A stretch of 64,000 nt of DNA, from NCBI GenBank assembly GCA_951406725.2, contig OX597829.1:9300001-9364000 (forward strand), given 5' to 3'. The notes under the pieces were generated by a model that searched no databases, had not been told where the DNA came from, and saw nothing but the letters and a program-made list of their open reading frames with translations. This DNA comes from Octopus vulgaris. Taxonomy: Eukaryota. The stretch's first letter is position 1. Every line of letters starts with the position of its first letter. This document shows positions 10,197-54,639 of the stretch, one piece after another. Both the position numbers and the translations under genes were made by a program.

Positions 10197-10581
10197 CTTC
10201 AAAAGTCTTATTGAAAAAAAAAGAAACAAAAAAATGGAGGATTTTATCCAAAGAATGAGATGTAAAGCTTATTTCTTTGACACCAAACAATAAATTAACA
10301 GAAACACATTATGGCTTTAAATCTTCTAAAAAAAAAAACACCACCTATTTCGGAATTAGAAGATTTTGAAAAAGACATTTTGAAGCTTATTAGAAGAATA
10401 AAATTCCGCAACGTTAACAATCAATTCCAGTGAGATATGAAGTAAAAAATCAGAAACATTAAGAACTCGGAAAAGATCTTCGTAAACTCTGACAAAACAA
10501 AAAACTATACGCGGTTGACAAAGATGTTTAGAAAGGTGTACTTTGGAATAGCATTACAAACACCCACAAAAAAAAGATAAC

Positions 10582-11613
10582 ATGAATTTATATAGAGTGA
10601 CGAACTTGGAAGCAAGAAGAATTGGTAACAATCTTAAAGTTAGTGATAGGATAGAATACCTCTCCCCACACCAACCCTTTATTACCCTGAAGGACTACAA
10701 AGCAAATTTCAATAGAAACCCTAAATGTAGACTAATTAACCCAGCTAAACCTGAAATAGACGTTATTAGCAAAAGTATTTTAGTTTCTATTTTAAGCAGG
10801 TTAAATAGTGAATTAAATTTGCAGATTTGGGGAAATAGCAAGCCAGTGATTGATAGGTTCAAAGGAATTAGCCATAAACACAACTGCAAATTTACTCAGT
10901 TCGATATTGTCGATTTTTACCCGTCAATATCCAGGCCTTTACTTCTTAAAAAATCAGACTTCGCAAAGCAGTATGTCAACATCGATAACTCGGATTTAGA
11001 TGTTATCTTGCATGCAAGAAATCTCTCTTTTTTTTACGATGATTCCACCTGGGCTAGGATTCTCTATCCAATGTACCGATGGGGGAATTTTATAAGGGCG
11101 GTGTTGTGTATGTTTATAGAAGCTTATATTTTGCATAATTTGCATCCAGAATTCCCTTTTATAGATGCAGGATTATTATGCAGGGATGACGGTCTTATAG
11201 TCACCCATCATTTAAACGGCCATGTGTTAGATAAACTTAGGACGAATCTTATTACTTACTTCCAAAGAATTGGCTAACAGATAATGATAGAAAGAAATCT
11301 TAATAAGGTAGATTTTTTAGATTTTAATTTAGATTTGCAATTAGATAAATTTAAACCTTACCGTAAGCCCAATGATAAGAGTGTTTTTTTATATATCAAC
11401 AAAGAATCAAATCATCCGCACGTAATTCTTAAGAACCTAGTTAGTAATATAGGAAGGCGCATAACATCCATATCTTCAGACGAGACAGCGTTTCAAAATG
11501 TTGCGCCGTATTATTGTAATGCATTAAGTAGATTCTCGGAGAAGAGCCAGTATAGTGAAACTGCTTCTAGCAATAATAGACCAATTAAAACCAGAACTAG
11601 GAAAGTTTTGTGA
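10582..11613 (+). pseudogene. Penelope-like reverse transcriptase pseudogene
   Basis: ORFs 10582-11277 and 11284-11613 are in the same frame, split by a stop; RT motifs as above. Confidence 0.9.
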
Positions 11614-24509: not shown

Positions 24510-24606
24510 AATCCCCTTCATCAGCTGTCCCTAGTTCAACTCCAGCGTGTTTCGAAGGTGAGGACAGAACACGTCTCGTCGAACTAGTCCTTCCTGCGAA
24601 AGAATT
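24510..24606 (-). ncRNA. Candidate non-circularly permuted hammerhead ribozyme, family 1 copy A
   Basis: AAUUCUUU cgcag GAAGG a CUAGUUCGAC gaga CGUGU U CUGUCC uca CCUUC GAA ACACG cugga GUUGAACUAG GGACAG CUGAUGA AGGGGAUU. Confidence 0.7.
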
Positions 24607-25281
24607 AAATAAAATTCCTTTGCAGAGGGGTAAAAACAAGGAAAAAATGTGACAGAAACAGGACGTAAAAACAATACAATTAAAAACAAATACAAAATAA
24701 ACATACAATTACAAAAAATACAGTACAAGAAGGAATAGAAACAGGACAGGAAAACAAATAATGAGGGCCTATAAGCCTAGACCAGGAAAAAATTTTCACG
24801 AGCGCAGGAAGAAAAATGTTTACTTGAAGAAGGCCGCCAGCGAAAGGAAGTTCGTCCACCCGGCTGTGAGAGAGATGAGGAGGAGTGAGAGAGAGAGCGA
24901 GATAGAGAGGAACGACGCCAAAGAGGGTGAAAGAAAGAGAGAAGAAGGAGTTATAGAATTTCGCGTCATAATTATATATAAAAAAACAGCTTAGAGAAGA
25001 AGAAGAAACGAAACGAAACGAGACGAATCGAATCGAATCGACGCGAGGGCGCTCAGTCATACAATAGTGTGATAATAAAATATATGCATACATAAAAACA
25101 TATATGTACGTACCTACATCTACATGTAATATACATGCATATATAAATATATATATACGTGTGTACAGGACACCACAAATAGACGTAGAACTCAACGAGA
25201 AACGAAAAAGTAAAAACAGCATGGAACGGACCATTTTTTTTAACAACGAAAAACAGAGTGCAAGACAACTACACAAGGAAA

Positions 25282-25370
25282 AATCCTCTTCATCAGCTGT
25301 CCCTAGTTCAACTCCAGCGTGTTTCGAAGGTGAGGACAGAACACGTCTCGTCGAACTACCCCTTCCTGCG

Positions 25371-26066: not shown

Positions 26067-26151
26067 GCTGATTCCTCGTCAGTTATCGCCCCAGGGTCCT
26101 TACAATTTCATGCCTTCATCGATAATATTGTTCACATTTGGTGGCGTCAGC
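26067..26151 (-). ncRNA. Candidate non-circularly permuted hammerhead, family 3
   Basis: GCUG ACGCC a cca aauguga ACAAU A UUAUCG augaa GGCAU GAA AUUGU aaggaccc ugg gg CGAUAA CUGACGA ggaau CAGC. Confidence 0.6.
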
Positions 26152-26280
26152 GATGAGAAGCTACTGGGTATAGCGAACCTATATATATATATATATTAAT
26201 AATAATAATATGACAACAAAAGAATGAATAAGACCTCGATATTACGTAAATAAAGGAATTTATCTATAAAAATAATATTC

Positions 26281-36573: not shown

Positions 36574-37202
36574 CAAGAAATTTTGTATGCATAGCACATG
36601 GAACTTCAGAAGGGTCTGCACATAACCATCTGTCATTTCTTCTGTTAACTTTTTTATCTTGGTCGAAGTATTTCTCGTTTGAGAAAAACCAAATCAAATC
36701 TTCTTCTGCTGGATTTTTCAATTTATTTAAGAGCCTTTTAGATCTGATATAGTGATTTTCTTTTGCTTTTTCTGACCAATTGACCTTTCCTCATCATATA
36801 AGACTTATATCTGATGTGTCCGTGGACAACATTTCTTACTGTTCTTTCTGACAAATGGAGAGCTTTTGCAATTGATCCCATAGACTTTCTGGGATTGTAA
36901 TTAAGGGTCTGTTGAATTTGCTGGATAAATTCAGGTGTTCTGATGATTTCAGACTGTTTAGACTGCTTTTTATGCTCTGATACTGGTGATACCTTTCCAT
37001 CTTTGTAGACGAAAGATCTGGCAACTTTAAATAATCGAGATATTTCTAAATCGCTATGCTCGGCCTGTATAACCACAATAACAGCATGCCTCTTCATTTC
37101 TTGAGTAAGCTGAGGGGTCTGAAACAAAGGCTTTACAGAGTTAGCAAAAGATGCAGCAATGACCCCCAAAAAGGTATGTCTTCAAATACCTTACGCACAC
37201 TG

Positions 37203-38745: not shown

Positions 38746-39680
38746 AAGGTTTTCTTCGATTTTTATAATATGAATTTTAAACTGTAATTGTAATTTCAAA
38801 TTACCGGTTATTTAAAAAACCGTTAGTTGAAAGGACCAATCAAACAAATCCACTTTCAAATGTGTATCTTTCAAAGTAATTGTGTATTCATGCATATAAC
38901 TATGCATTCCAAAATGCTGCACCTTATTACAATAGCTCATTAAGGAAAAGTGGATTCTCTGAGAAGATCCAGTATAACCAACTTAATGCTAGCAGTAATG
39001 CTACACGTAGAACTAGGACCAGAAAAGTTTTGTGGTTCAACCCAGCTTTCAATTTGGCCGTGAAAGCAAATATTGGTAGGGAATTCTTGAAATAAATCTC
39101 TAGGCATTTTCAACCGGGACATAAATTTTATTGAATATTTATTAGAAGAACGCTTAAGATCAGCTATTCTTGCTGGAGAAACTTTGCCTCTTTCGTTAAC
39201 CAACACAACAGTAGGATAATTGCTAATAACTATAGTGCCGATCCTCTTAAAAATTGTAATTTCAAAGATGGGTCTTCCTGTCCGTTGGAAGGGAAATTTC
39301 TGGAGAAAGGAATCGCATATAGAGCCAAGGTGCAGATAGAAGGCTCACGCGAATATAGAACTTATACAGGGGCTTCTGAAAATTCTTTTAAAACCCGATT
39401 TTATTCGCATAAAAATTCCTTTACATACCTCGAAAATAGGACGAAGACCAGCCTGGCGAAATATGTCTGGAATTAAAAGAAAAAGAAGCCCGACCTTTCA
39501 ACGTGTCATGAAGTATTTCGGATAGAGCGGCACCATTAGGCACGTGCGCATAAGAGAAATTTCAAGTGCGATTTATGTTTGCTGGAAAAATATTTTATTT
39601 TATTCCAATTCTTTAAATCAAAGAAGCGAACTCTTGAATTCATACAGACACGCAGCTAAATTTAAAATGTCGACTAGCAA
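38746..39680 (+). mobile_element. Penelope-like element 3' part (post-RT region, Cys motif, GIY-YIG endonuclease), same family as 9219-11790
   Basis: AFQNAAPYY, RKVLWFNPAF, KISYSC, CNFKDGSSCPLEG, GIAYRAKV...YTGASENSFKTRFYSH, TSLAKYVWN; preceded by a repeat similar to 9219-9385. Confidence 0.92.
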
Positions 39681-40173
39681 TATATCATATGGATAGCGTA
39701 TATTTTTGATTCTTGGACTAGTTTTTAATCATACTGTTGGATTTGTTTCTTATTATGAATGATTTATTCCACATCGCAAAGTTTTTGTATACATTTCGAT
39801 ATATTTCTTAAGAAAAACCTTCGACTGTTATATACTAATATTATTTTCTTGTATAGGATTCTGCTTTTATTTCATTTCATTTTATTGTATTTTATGAACC
39901 CAGTTTGATCGTTTAATTTATAGATAATTCGATATAGGGTGATATATTTTGCATGTCTTTTATCTAAATTTTATTATTATGCACTCAGCAATTTTTAAAA
40001 ATAATGTTGTTTGTATATACGTCAGATCCTAGACATGTTTTTATGTGAATATTTGTATTGGCATGCATATTTATTCGTATACATGCTTCTATGTATATGT
40101 GTAAGTGAGCGTGTATATTTATACTATACCTACATACATACATACATACTTACATACATATATATATACATAC

Positions 40174-40239
<66 letters not shown>

Positions 40240-40403
40240 TCACACACGTATATATATATATATATATATATATAAAGGAATGTAAGTGTACGTACGCCGT
40301 CATATGTATATAAAAAAGGAATACAAAAATGGGACAAGAACGCAAACCATACAGACAGACGATACAAAAGAGGAACAAGAAAAATCACGGACGGGCCATT
40401 CGA

Positions 40404-40498
40404 AGTTTTCTCTCCTCAGTCGAGTTCCAGATTATCTTTGCAATTTCGGCTGGTTATACTCGAGATTGCTCCAATCTAGTCAGCTCCAAGGCAAAACT
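40404..40498 (-). ncRNA. Candidate non-circularly permuted hammerhead, family 2
   Basis: AGUUUU gccuugga GCUG a CUAGAUU gga GCAAU C UCGAGU auaac CAGC c GAA AUUGC aaagau AAUCUGG a ACUCGA CUGAGGA gag AAAACU. Confidence 0.68.
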
Positions 40499-41030
40499 AA
40501 GCCAAGACCATTAGATTCCTTGGAAGAAATCAGTGAACGTATTTGAAAACAAGGACAGAAAAAAAACGGAGACACGGTACACAAATACAAATGCAAATAA
40601 CAGGACATAACAACAGGTGTCTTTCGACTAAGAACGAATTGAATTAAGTTGGCGTGTATGAAAATGAAGCCTTATGGCAGGGACATAAGAGTTGACAGGT
40701 ATGGGGAGGAATATAGATGTTGCAGAGATGGTAGTCGAACCAAGAAAGAAAGGTCAGGCTTGGCTGAACACTGGTCACGTGGGGAGAGAGAAGAGAGATA
40801 AAATCATTAATGATTTTACCAGGGGTTCAGCGCGGAAATGAAATTTTACGAATATTTTAATAATTATATAAATAATTATAACGAGATATTGGTTGTAAGC
40901 GTCTCCACGAGCTGGAAAAATAGACGCCAAAAGCCGGTATTACCACCTTAAAAACTCCGAAAATAAATATTTCTACGAGTGTGTATGTATATTTGCTGTA
41001 CGATGATACTGTTCGTAAATACTATGAAAG

Positions 41031-44289: not shown

Positions 44290-44827
44290 GACAGTTTAAA
44301 CAGTGCCTAGCGACCCGTAACCTCCACTTAGCTATGTACTTTCGATATGTTGACGACATTAAGCTTGTCGTGAAATGTAATAATAATACAGACACAGAGA
44401 TAGACTCTCCACTAAATGAAGAACAGGTGATGACAGCTATACAACACATAGCTGACTCTATTCATAGCAGTATAAAAGTTACCGTGGACTACCCCAGTAA
44501 TAGATTACCTGTCCTAGATATTGAGCTGTGGATGGAAAATACTATGATTAACGGAACTGTTAAACCCTGTATACTCCACTCACACTATTGTAAACCTATG
44601 GCTAATCCACTGGTAATCCGTAATGATTCAGCAATGTCGAGTACTACCAAGCTCAACATCCTGGTGGCAGACTTAGTTAGAGTAATGAGGAATGTATCTC
44701 CACTATGCCAACCACAAGAACGACAACAACACATCCAGCACTTCATATTCCGAATGCAACGACCAAGATACACACACTATTACAGAATCAGAGTGTACAA
44801 AGGAGCGAAAACAAGATTCGAACGCAT
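44290..44827 (+). mobile_element. Penelope-like RT C-terminal/thumb fragment (different family from 10.6 kb)
   Basis: YFRYVDD, IKVTVDYPS, RLPVLDIELW, HYCKPMAN, SAMS...KLNIL. Confidence 0.85.
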
Positions 44828-45278
44828 TCTAAGTTACGGTTCAGTTCAGTCCATTATCAATGAAAATTTGGATATGAAGCGCGTGTCTGCCACGTTTTTG
44901 CCAAAACTGCTTTCAGCTGACCAAGAAGACACTCAGGTTTCAGTTGTACAAGATCTCCTTGACTGTGTCGAGAAAGATGAAAACATTTTGAAAAACTTTG
45001 CGTAGGCCTCTGAGCAAGTATAGCCTCGCTTTTGGCAAAATTTGATGCATATTCTCTCTCTCAACTTTCTCTGTCATTATCGATGAGATGATCACACGCT
45101 ACATACGTTTCTTCCAAGCATTAGTGTAGACAGTAGAAATGCACTACAACGTTAAAATTTGTGCACATGCACAACAGTGTTCAAGGTCAATTTGTGCCAA
45201 GCAGCTTCACTTTACGCTTTTTAGCTTCGTTACTTTGGCAACAGTCCGTATATTTATTGATCAGACCCACGCGTGTAT
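44828..45278. mobile_element. Rearranged mariner relic: internal part on + (44828-~44997), 5' end with TIR on - (~44997-45278)
   Basis: + strand LSYGSVQSIINENLDMKRVSATFLPKLL; - strand MTEKVE..ICIKFCQKRG and ggtctgatcaataaatatacggactg TIR-like end. Confidence 0.8.
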
Positions 45279-52266: not shown

Positions 52267-52564
52267 TCTCTGGCCCGCTCGATTCACCTTTTGTTAAATG
52301 CATCAGGATATTCTCCTAGCGTTGACTATTTCTGTCTACAATGTGGTCCTAAGGCCTTATTTTGTTCGTCTATCTATATCAGTTCGTTTCTACGCTCACA
52401 GTCCCGTTTCTTTCCTTTGCCATCCTTCACACATCCACTACTTGTCTCGTTTTCGATTACATTTATTCCACGTTTGTATGTTAACTGTCTGTATCGCATT
52501 CTTGTCTGTTTGTACATGTCTTGTCTTATTTCTTGCTTTTTGGCTCTCTAATTCCTAGCGGCAT

Positions 52565-52662
52565 TTGCCGCCGGCGGCGCCACCAGTAGAGTATTTAGTA
52601 TTATCGGTTAGGCACGAAATTACGGTTGACCCACTAGACGATAACTGATGAGAATTTGGTAA
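52565..52662 (+). ncRNA. Candidate non-circularly permuted hammerhead, family 3-related
   Basis: UUGCCG ccggcg GCGCC a ccaguag aguauu UAGU A UUAUCG guua GGCAC GAA AUUA cgguugac ccacuag a CGAUAA CUGAUGA gaauu UGGUAA. Confidence 0.6.
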
Positions 52663-54639
52663 CCCTCTCTGTCTGTTTTCCGTTTGTTTGTGCATTTATT
52701 ATATATTTTGAACTCATTACATATATAGTTATATATATATATATATATATATATATAGCAATAAGAAAATAGAGAGGATCAATAGGTTCATCAACTTTCA
52801 GACATTATATTACGTTAACTTATTTATTTATTTACTAAACTGATAATTACAAAAATATACATACATACATACATACATACATACATACATACATACATAC
52901 ATACATACATACATACATACATACGTACATATAACATATTATGCTTTACATATAAGATATAAAATATAGTAATATATTAGGATACCTGTAATTATTATAA
53001 AATAACAAACATGAATATAAATTGGGAAAAGATATATATATGTATATATGTGTGTATGTATGTATGTATGTATGTATGTATGTATGTATGTATGTATGTA
53101 TGTATGTATGTATGTATGTATGTATGTATGTATGTATGTATGTATGTATGTATGTATGTATAATATTACAATGTCGTAAAATAAACTACGAATCTTGTTA
53201 GATACAGCTATACAGGGTTTCCTGCTCGAAATCCTAATTTATTTCGCCATTTTTCAAGCTGAGAAGACCGTTTGTGTATACGTTCTTTTTCTTGGCTTGT
53301 TTTCGTGAGCGAATTTTATGCAGAGTAAAGTCCTTGTCAGCTGCAGGCTTGTTCATATTGAATACGTTTCTTTTCCTGATATATATTTTGCAGTCATATT
53401 TAACCCTCAATAAACGAAAACTACAACATTAACATATAAAAGTTTGATAGATCTAAACGTTAGCGTTGGACGTTAACAGCCAGGTGTGTAATCGACATGT
53501 TGGACGTTACTCACCCATGTCCTCAGATATAATCTCAAGGGACTTGTGTATGGCATCCTACAACCGTGTGATATCCAGCAGCTATGGCCATCCCATCTTA
53601 AATATTTGACCACGTACGTTTTTTTTAGAATATCTAGTTGGAAGATACTTGTTTTGATCGAAGATTAAAAATTATTTTATTTGGATACATTTTAATCGAA
53701 TCCATCACACTAAATTACCCAAAAGCAAAATGAGAAAACCTGGAAAATGATAATGCAACCAAATCAGAAGCAGAAGTGACAAGCATAAATCAAACAAGAA
53801 AAATATAATAACTGTAGAAACATATGAATATGGAACTGACACATTCAAAATGAACAGAAAACTCAACACCGCTAAAAATTTGAATTACTATAGACTAATG
53901 ACCGAAAAACAAATGGACGGGAATAACAGGACGGTAAAGACTGAAAGAACGCCTAAAACAAGTGACATTCGCTAATTCCCATATAATCTGTTGGTTTGAG
54001 AAGCAACAATGATTCCACGAACAAACGCTTCAAACGATTTTCTCAAGAACCATGAAAAATAACGTAGAAATTAATGCAATACTAACTGCACGAGAAATGG
54101 AAGAATTTGGAGAAAGGTTTGTGCAGCAAAGGAATCTCCACGGACGCAAAAGTTCAAAACAGCAGAGATGGCCTTTCCATTGTGGAGATGTTACAAACAA
54201 TAAACAACTAGAAGGTATCAAGGCGTGATAAGATTCTACACAATTTAATAAAATGCTGAAAGAGCGGTAGAAAAAAACCCCCATCTAATTGGTTCACTGA
54301 GGTGAAGAGACCCTTCGAAATCAATCAGACAACATAAAGTGAACCTTTAAAACCTCGAGTGCCTTAGAAAGCCTTATCAGTGCAATATTACTGAGATCAA
54401 AATACAACAGAAGGGGGAAGGGATTAGTTTTCCATTAAATGGATGATGGTGTTCTCATCACTTGTTGATTCTAGAAACATTAGCGGCATCGTTAGGATAG
54501 AACCACAAGCAAGCAGATACATTTAACTTGTCACGAAGAGATAGAGAAAAAGTCCGTAGACACAGAAAAAAAGTGGGGAATTATAAACTAATTCAAACTC
54601 TATTAGAACTGAAATGTGTCAAGAGGAGTATTTCTCTTC

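Follow-up and report, generated by a model that had tools for sequence, protein, structure and literature searches.

Introduction

The closest described relatives of the RNA reported here are the type SGC hammerheads (HRIMA-1 and variants), which represent a non-circular permutation of the ribozyme and cleave at 0.007-0.13 per min. In the accessible text of that study they derive from metatranscriptomes and from no genome of a known organism, and the CUGAnGA sequence and the stem II strand are assumed to be inseparable (Eckert et al. 2023, PMC10085705). A second related system is formed by the non-LTR retrozymes, for which the accessible texts give a unit length near 300 nt (Cervera and de la Pena 2020, PMC7229834) and a range of 51-972 nt (Li et al. 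2026, bioRxiv 10.64898/2026.07.22.740005). For the Naiad elements, the accessible part of the original description reports no canonical hammerhead, flags an 'HHR_half_core' in eight of them, and describes those of cephalopods as remnants that have long been inactive (Craig et al. 2021, PMC8557442).

Hammerhead variants with additional helices are mentioned in passing in the accessible text of PMC13725137; the accessible text of PMC10162972, which it cites, contains no form with a split core. No such form was found in searches of the openly accessible literature.

Here we describe a motif in a 64,000-nucleotide stretch of the 2.8 Gb Octopus vulgaris genome, referred to below as the window. We hold with considerable confidence that it lies in a decayed, 5'-truncated copy of a non-coding tandem repeat, that it represents a split-core SGC hammerhead predicted to self-cleave, and that the repeat was likely copied into TA microsatellites by a Penelope-like reverse transcriptase (RT) acting in trans.

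Results

Architecture of the motif

The assigned parts of the motif, 5' and 3' referring to the minus strand, are as follows.

40404..40498, minus: permuted hammerhead motif, in the order IV - II(10.x) - V - S block - G block - V' - I(2.x) - CUGAnGA - IV'
40488..40498, minus: stem IV 5' strand, 6 + 3 bp flanking a 2-nt bulge; the least supported helix
40498-40493 / 40409-40404, minus: 6-bp part of stem IV, AGUUUU / AAAACU
40480..40485, minus: stem II 10.x strand, upstream of all other hammerhead parts and not after A9
40484-40481 / 40452-40449, minus: pairing of stem II, GCUG / CAGC
40485 and 40448, minus: position 10.1, A40485 opposite C40448
40473..40479, minus: stem V 5' strand, CUAGAUU, the equivalent of the type SGC stem I-II interaction helix
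40470..40472, minus: non-bulged strand of the kink-turn motif, 3n-1n = GGA
40458..40469, minus: block S, with the stem III 16.x strand, C17 at 40464 and the stem I 1.x strand
40464/40463, minus: predicted cut between these two nucleotides, after AUC
40440..40453, minus: block G, with the stem II 11.x strand, GAAA at 40447-40444 and the stem III 15.x strand
40469-40465 / 40444-40440, minus: stem III, GCAAU / AUUGC
40434..40439, minus: bulged strand of the kink-turn motif, AAA (3-nt bulge), then G1b A2b U3b
40427..40433, minus: stem V 3' strand, AAUCUGG
40463-40458 / 40425-40420, minus: stem I, UCGAGU / ACUCGA
40413..40425, minus: stem I 2.x strand and core, CUGAGGA at 40419-40413, with no stem II strand after it
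40404..40412, minus: stem IV 3' strand, beginning directly after A9

A sequence-only reading of this DNA had proposed a permuted hammerhead here, and all elements that it listed are present at their places when the minus strand is read directly. Its architecture stands at the sequence level; that SGC is the closest type and that the core is split were not recognized. It also overlooked a kink-turn motif between stems III and V, three further stem IV pairs adjoining the core (40490-40488 / 40410-40412), and a competing helix of the upstream strand with the core. In a kink-turn, two helices are separated by a 3-nt bulge and the tandem G·A / A·G pairs that come after it.

The core blocks run in S-G-C order and the chain is open between A9 and G10.1. 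The nucleotides of the hammerhead core (C3-A9, G12-A15.1, U16.1 and H17) are all present. As read from this order, the RNA is an SGC ring, its usual ends closed with the putative kink-turn, that has been opened inside the core.

With canonical type I, II and III hammerheads (Rfam) the motif shares CUGAnGA, GAAA, the NUH site, stems I-III and a purine-pyrimidine 10.1-11.1 pair, but its strand order is not a circular permutation of theirs. It has more in common with the type SGC ribozymes, as far as the accessible text describes them: the S-G-C blocks, stems I and II as pseudoknots, all core nucleotides, a 4-nt linker from stem I to stem II, and a helix joining the distal sides, which is stem V here. 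In contrast to type SGC, block C is not intact, its 10.x strand coming first, and the natural SGC ends are joined through the kink-turn motif. The type SGC examples are metatranscriptomic, whereas the present form occurs in thousands of copies in an animal genome.

Searched against Rfam, the window gave no match at gathering scores, and the region around the motif gave no hammerhead at E up to 10. Nested folding of the motif is ordinary (z -0.61, with 52/200 shuffles as good), which is expected for a structure with stems I and II formed as pseudoknots; neither stem appears in a plain folding prediction.

Covariation across lineages

The unremarkable folding and the lack of an Rfam match would suit chance complementarity within a repeat, amplified by copying. 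We give this reading almost no credence, because the helices covary over unrelated sequences, shuffled sequence yields no descriptor matches, and the same strand order occurs in a coral element. Nine lineage representatives were compared (2a-2d, 1a, 1b, 3, 4 and the Naiad type). In these, stems I, II, III and V together are paired at 167/171 positions, compared to 48-68% when strands are swapped between lineages. Own-lineage pairing amounts to 45/45 positions in stem I, 44/45 in stem II, 36/36 in stem III and 42/45 in stem V, against strand-swapped means of 0.59, 0.52, 0.68 and 0.48; the own-lineage values lean high, since representatives and registers were selected by how well they pair. Every position apart from U16.1-A15.1 shows between two and five pair types.

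The catalytic letters CUGAnGA, GAAA and NUH are kept while the stems around them are replaced, so that the replacement of stems around a fixed core, originally noted between two families, extends over all nine lineages. A kink-turn GA/GA with a 3-nt bulge can be parsed at the sequence level in 9/9 representatives.

In four of five family-2 representatives the upstream strand pairs with the 11.x strand at 5/5 positions, while the strand after A9 does so at only 1-2 of 5 positions in all five. A canonical SGC stem II formed with the 3'-side strand was rejected for family 2 on this count. Families 1, 3 and Naiad could also form a weak stem II with that strand, rich in G·U and with up to 4/5 pairs.

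A strict descriptor for this strand order returned 129 matches in 1.06 Mb of window and locus sequence, a set that was chosen by family search and is redundant. It returned none in 3.17 Mb of block-shuffled sequence and none in 200 shuffles of the window. The window copy itself scores only 2 on stem II, below the threshold, owing to its A·C mismatch, and its support therefore comes from its family. Judged by this comparative evidence, the motif is a real, selected hammerhead-like structure and not a product of chance.

The repeat and its copies

The motif belongs to a dispersed repeat, and the window holds four more motifs of the same architecture, from three other families.

40284..40798, minus: non-coding repeat copy of family 2a, 5'-truncated; unit about 750 nt
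40170..40280, no strand: microsatellite, (TA)n, adjoining the 3' end of the copy
24518..25365, minus: family 1, two motifs 772 nt apart in one tandem unit, H17 at 25340 and 24568
26067..26175, minus: family 4, same architecture in a decayed motif; H17 at 26126
52548..52663, plus: family 3, same architecture in a decayed motif; stem IV and 10.1 are separated by an extra hairpin

The extra hairpin between stem IV and 10.1 is found in family 4 as well as in family 3, and the 10.1-11.1 pair is mostly A-U in family 4. Elsewhere in the window, an open reading frame (ORF) fragment at 36738-37181 (minus) resembles a Tc1/mariner transposase N-terminus. At another locus (L074), a 284-aa frame upstream of the repeat resembles a fragment of a Helitron PIF1-type helicase.

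Copies end at (TA)n about 150 nt past the cut, are truncated to variable extents at the 5' side, and occur as tandem or inverted (partial) pairs. Tandem units measure about 750 nt in family 2a, 772 nt in family 1 and 720-726 nt in family 2b. The 2b range is represented by an array of five motifs with unit lengths of 726, 723, 724 and 720 nt (G000:C1:79499425-79502351, L312), which consists of near-identical units with TA tracts at both ends. The window copy continues beyond a short TA tract and includes the initial 15 nt of a following unit (40298-40284), from which we infer a tandem or circular template. Family 2 units contain no conserved ORF and no ORF for a GIY-YIG endonuclease plus RT; the 2b unit has a low-complexity frame of 197 aa, and the corresponding frame in 2a is not open. 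No run listed as containing the repeat is on record as RNA. Contigs from four runs, presumed to be RNA, cover most of the 2b unit and are deepest near the motif; ends and levels not being visible in contigs, they are not counted as evidence here.

This organization resembles that of the non-LTR retrozymes. As described in the accessible texts, both consist of non-coding tandem units with one hammerhead each, range from monomers to multimers and have dispersed copies, and a Penelope-like origin has been proposed for both. The hammerheads of the retrozymes are type I, unlike those described here, and circular RNA, putative for family 2, has been demonstrated for the retrozymes.

A search for the family of the window copy gave 668 first-look candidates, of which 40 were scored at 89-92% identity. 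Of 68 distinct full copies, 46 have G-C at 10.1-11.1, 9 have A·C and 4 have G·U. The A opposite C in the window copy had been put down to mutation, and this distribution bears that out: the copy has A at both 10.1 and 10.6, where the family majority has G. The consensus likewise bears out the core, each letter of which is kept in 59-68 of the 68 copies, and it repairs stem II, the outer pair of which is formed in 62/68; the other mismatches of the window copy are minority states. At the stem V position 40478, 56/68 copies have C-G. In total the window copy carries two stem II mismatches. With A10.1·C, one more mismatch in stem II and only one motif, the copy is probably dead, and efficient cleavage by it is unlikely. 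The sister family 2b is young, with many 99-100% identical copies and double changes in stems I and V.

Copies that start at the predicted cut

An exact pattern for family 2b matches the genome 2,990 times (control 0). Among the first 100 of these matches, 9 start exactly at nucleotide 1.1 with (TA)n-type sequence joined directly to it, 2 keep C17, and 2-3 start between -13 and -5. Nine of 14 starts thus fall on a single one of 14 visible positions, with about 5 spread over the other 13 (p about 7e-8). The flanks of the nine copies differ from each other, and in two of them a T immediately precedes 1.1 and disrupts the TA register. Eighteen matches among the same 100 begin ATAT at -14 and are ambiguous; eight of them are tandem pairs, which indicates a variant of a sub-lineage.

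In a set of 40 family 2b copies obtained with queries beginning at the cut, the start lies at -4 or -3 in six, two without C17 and four with it, and none of the 40 copies with flanks starts between -14 and -5. Cut-site starts are not enriched in family 2a (2/46, p 0.14) or family 1 (1/32, p 0.32), and number 2/40 in the Naiad type. The family 2b starts near the cut that keep C17 (4/6, plus 2 more) are not explained by a simple cut; speculatively, they could arise from a reverse transcriptase jumping the nick onto a 5' fragment that is still paired.

These starts bear on the possibility that the fold is real and selected but non-catalytic, being a hammerhead-derived structure for 3'-end recognition or protein binding. 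Starts near the cut would then reflect RT stalling at a tight fold and joining at AT microhomology, which would account for the six near-cut starts that keep C17, situated on AT that matches the target repeat, and for the absence of cut-site enrichment in three of the four families. The kink-turn motif could bind protein. We nevertheless regard a non-catalytic fold as improbable: all catalytic letters are retained in nine lineages that have replaced their stems, and the 9 of the 100 listed 2b copies that begin at 1.1 lack C17, two of them with the register-breaking T. The many short family 2b copies beginning exactly at the predicted cut suggest that the design likely cuts in the animal, and we consider cleavage by the intact lineages likely.

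Stem IV and a competing helix

Of the five helices in the original proposal, stems I, II, III and V are well supported, but stem IV is statistically indistinguishable from chance pairing, which reduces the well-supported set to four. It did not exceed shuffles in two tests, and its own helices average 6.5 bp compared to 5.9 bp across groups, with 1/11 reaching p<0.05. Several lineages show complementarity from A9+1 onwards, with concerted changes between 2b and 2d.

The 5' strand of stem IV together with 40487-40486 can pair with the core instead. In family 2a the calculated energies are -10.8 kcal/mol for this upstream strand-core helix vs -4.4 kcal/mol for stem IV (locus L007), with corresponding values of -8.7 vs -4.3 kcal/mol in the window copy and -11.3 vs -9.8 kcal/mol in family 2b. 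In this energy model, the stronger upstream pairing may silence the core in family 2a. The bases just 5' of 10.1 (the 40487-40484 region and its equivalents in families 1, 2b and 3) are repeatedly complementary to the CUG at the start of the core, which suggests a conserved off-state helix.

Family 2a may accordingly be switchable or dead, its core normally hidden by the upstream strand so that cutting would need refolding, a protein or a second unit, while lineages such as 2b are self-sufficient. The core-hiding helix is about 6 kcal/mol stronger than stem IV in L007 vs 1.5 kcal/mol in 2b, family 1 also has a core-complementary upstream strand, and cut-site starts are strong in 2b and weak in 2a. 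However, the energy model omits the two pseudoknots and the tertiary contacts of the core, and two family 2a copies do start at the cut. We consider this reading rather unlikely; it would modify, and not exclude, the preferred interpretation of a self-cleaving split-core hammerhead.

Naiad and other Penelope-like elements

Inspection by eye of 11 published Naiad 3' ends, in the part of the data set accessible to us, identified the full wiring in three: Naiad_Ovul, the record preceding Naiad_Ovul, and the coral element Naiad_Amil. The latter has 6 bp in stem II, 6 bp in stem I, 12 bp in stem III, 10 bp in stem V and 8 bp in stem IV straight after A9; like family 3 it contains an extra hairpin, and a kink-turn is absent. 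Naiad_Esco shows the S-G-C order with a poor stem II. The motif is absent in the other 7/11 of these 3' ends (three bivalve, one hemichordate, one hydrozoan and two incomplete cephalopod records). The bivalve and hemichordate 3' ends accessible in File S5 of Craig 2021 have a different conserved, GC-rich 3' motif and no hammerhead core; this motif is possibly another structured RNA.

In the octopus genome, the motif taken from Naiad_Ovul has 269 exact matches (control 0). One of these matches lies 1.3-1.7 kb downstream of a matching RT remnant on the same strand, RT motifs being found at only 1/40 Naiad-type loci. This remnant is Naiad-like and belongs to a family that is separate from family 2 but shares its fold. 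A tblastn search of the Naiad-type locus, with intact Penelope-like ORFs as queries, gave no match, and a locus taken at greater length (L322) has no RT motifs.

The window also contains broken Penelope-like RT/endonuclease remnants at 38904-39660 (plus) and 10552-11613 (plus), which we take to be Nematis-like. A young family related to them has many identical copies and open frames of 700+ aa. The endonuclease remnant at 39135-39476 was considered as part of the repeat and rejected, since it is on the opposite strand, on the far side of the TA array, and is part of a different element. In its intact relatives, a canonical minimal type I hammerhead follows about 1 kb past the stop codon (L117:3080-3125, plus; also L120, L121 and L125), so two hammerhead topologies coexist in the Penelope-like elements of one genome. 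A second RT remnant at 44292-45005 (plus) has relatives with open frames of up to 1,312 aa (L151-L162), a group that we assume to be Neptune-like. In the 3' regions fetched for two Neptune-like families, the split-core motif and any CUGAnGA core are absent; near the 3' end of L154/L155 there is a CUGAUG-like stretch with GAAA after it. A Pfam search with four ORF remnants of the window returned no informative match.

Like the Naiads, as described in the accessible text, family 2 shows (TA)n targeting, 5' truncation, tandem and inverted copies and a short tail extension, and the octopus and coral Naiad 3' ends have the same ribozyme wiring; unlike them, family 2 encodes no protein. The shared wiring and TA target raise the possibility that the repeat is a non-autonomous Naiad derivative still moved by Naiad enzymes, all the more as the two other Penelope-like groups found here have a canonical minimal hammerhead or none. 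On the other hand, cephalopod Naiads are long-inactive according to the accessible text of Craig 2021, yet family 2b has many 99-100% identical copies, and the long open frames found here, in searches with non-Naiad queries, belong to other Penelope-like groups. We regard this origin as credible, though somewhat less likely than not; in the preferred interpretation of the repeat, a Penelope-like RT likely acts in trans.

Discussion

The element appears to work like a type SGC hammerhead placed in a retrozyme, and lacks one defining feature of each. Covariation suggests that stems IV, V and III form one long hairpin. The kink-turn would bend this hairpin and bring its top loop into pairing with both sides of the large internal loop, generating stems I and II as pseudoknots and assembling a normal core, which in the window copy would self-cleave after AUC at 40464. 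By analogy with the non-LTR retrozymes, a transcript across tandem units would be cut to unit-length RNA, perhaps circularized, and the unit RNA would use the UA tract that it contains for priming on a nicked (TA)n target. Reverse copying, with the Penelope-like reverse transcriptase supplied in trans, would then give rise to 5'-truncated, tandem or inverted insertions.

On balance we lean towards a wider interpretation, in which the motif represents a seventh natural hammerhead topology, outside the six-permutation scheme and built as a kink-turn-folded hairpin. It would be an overlooked ribozyme of a Naiad branch extending from corals to cephalopods, and of abundant retrozyme families that are still cutting and spreading.

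If so, the stated rule of an inseparable CUGAnGA block and stem II would be broken. A compact kink-turn scaffold with free ends at the core may be of use in ribozyme engineering, and the role of a ribozyme in Penelope-like transposition becomes directly testable with a 95-nt RNA. The split core would explain why descriptor searches reported Naiads to be devoid of hammerheads, and non-circularly permuted hammerheads would move from environmental RNA to animal genomes, where they are present in thousands of copies.
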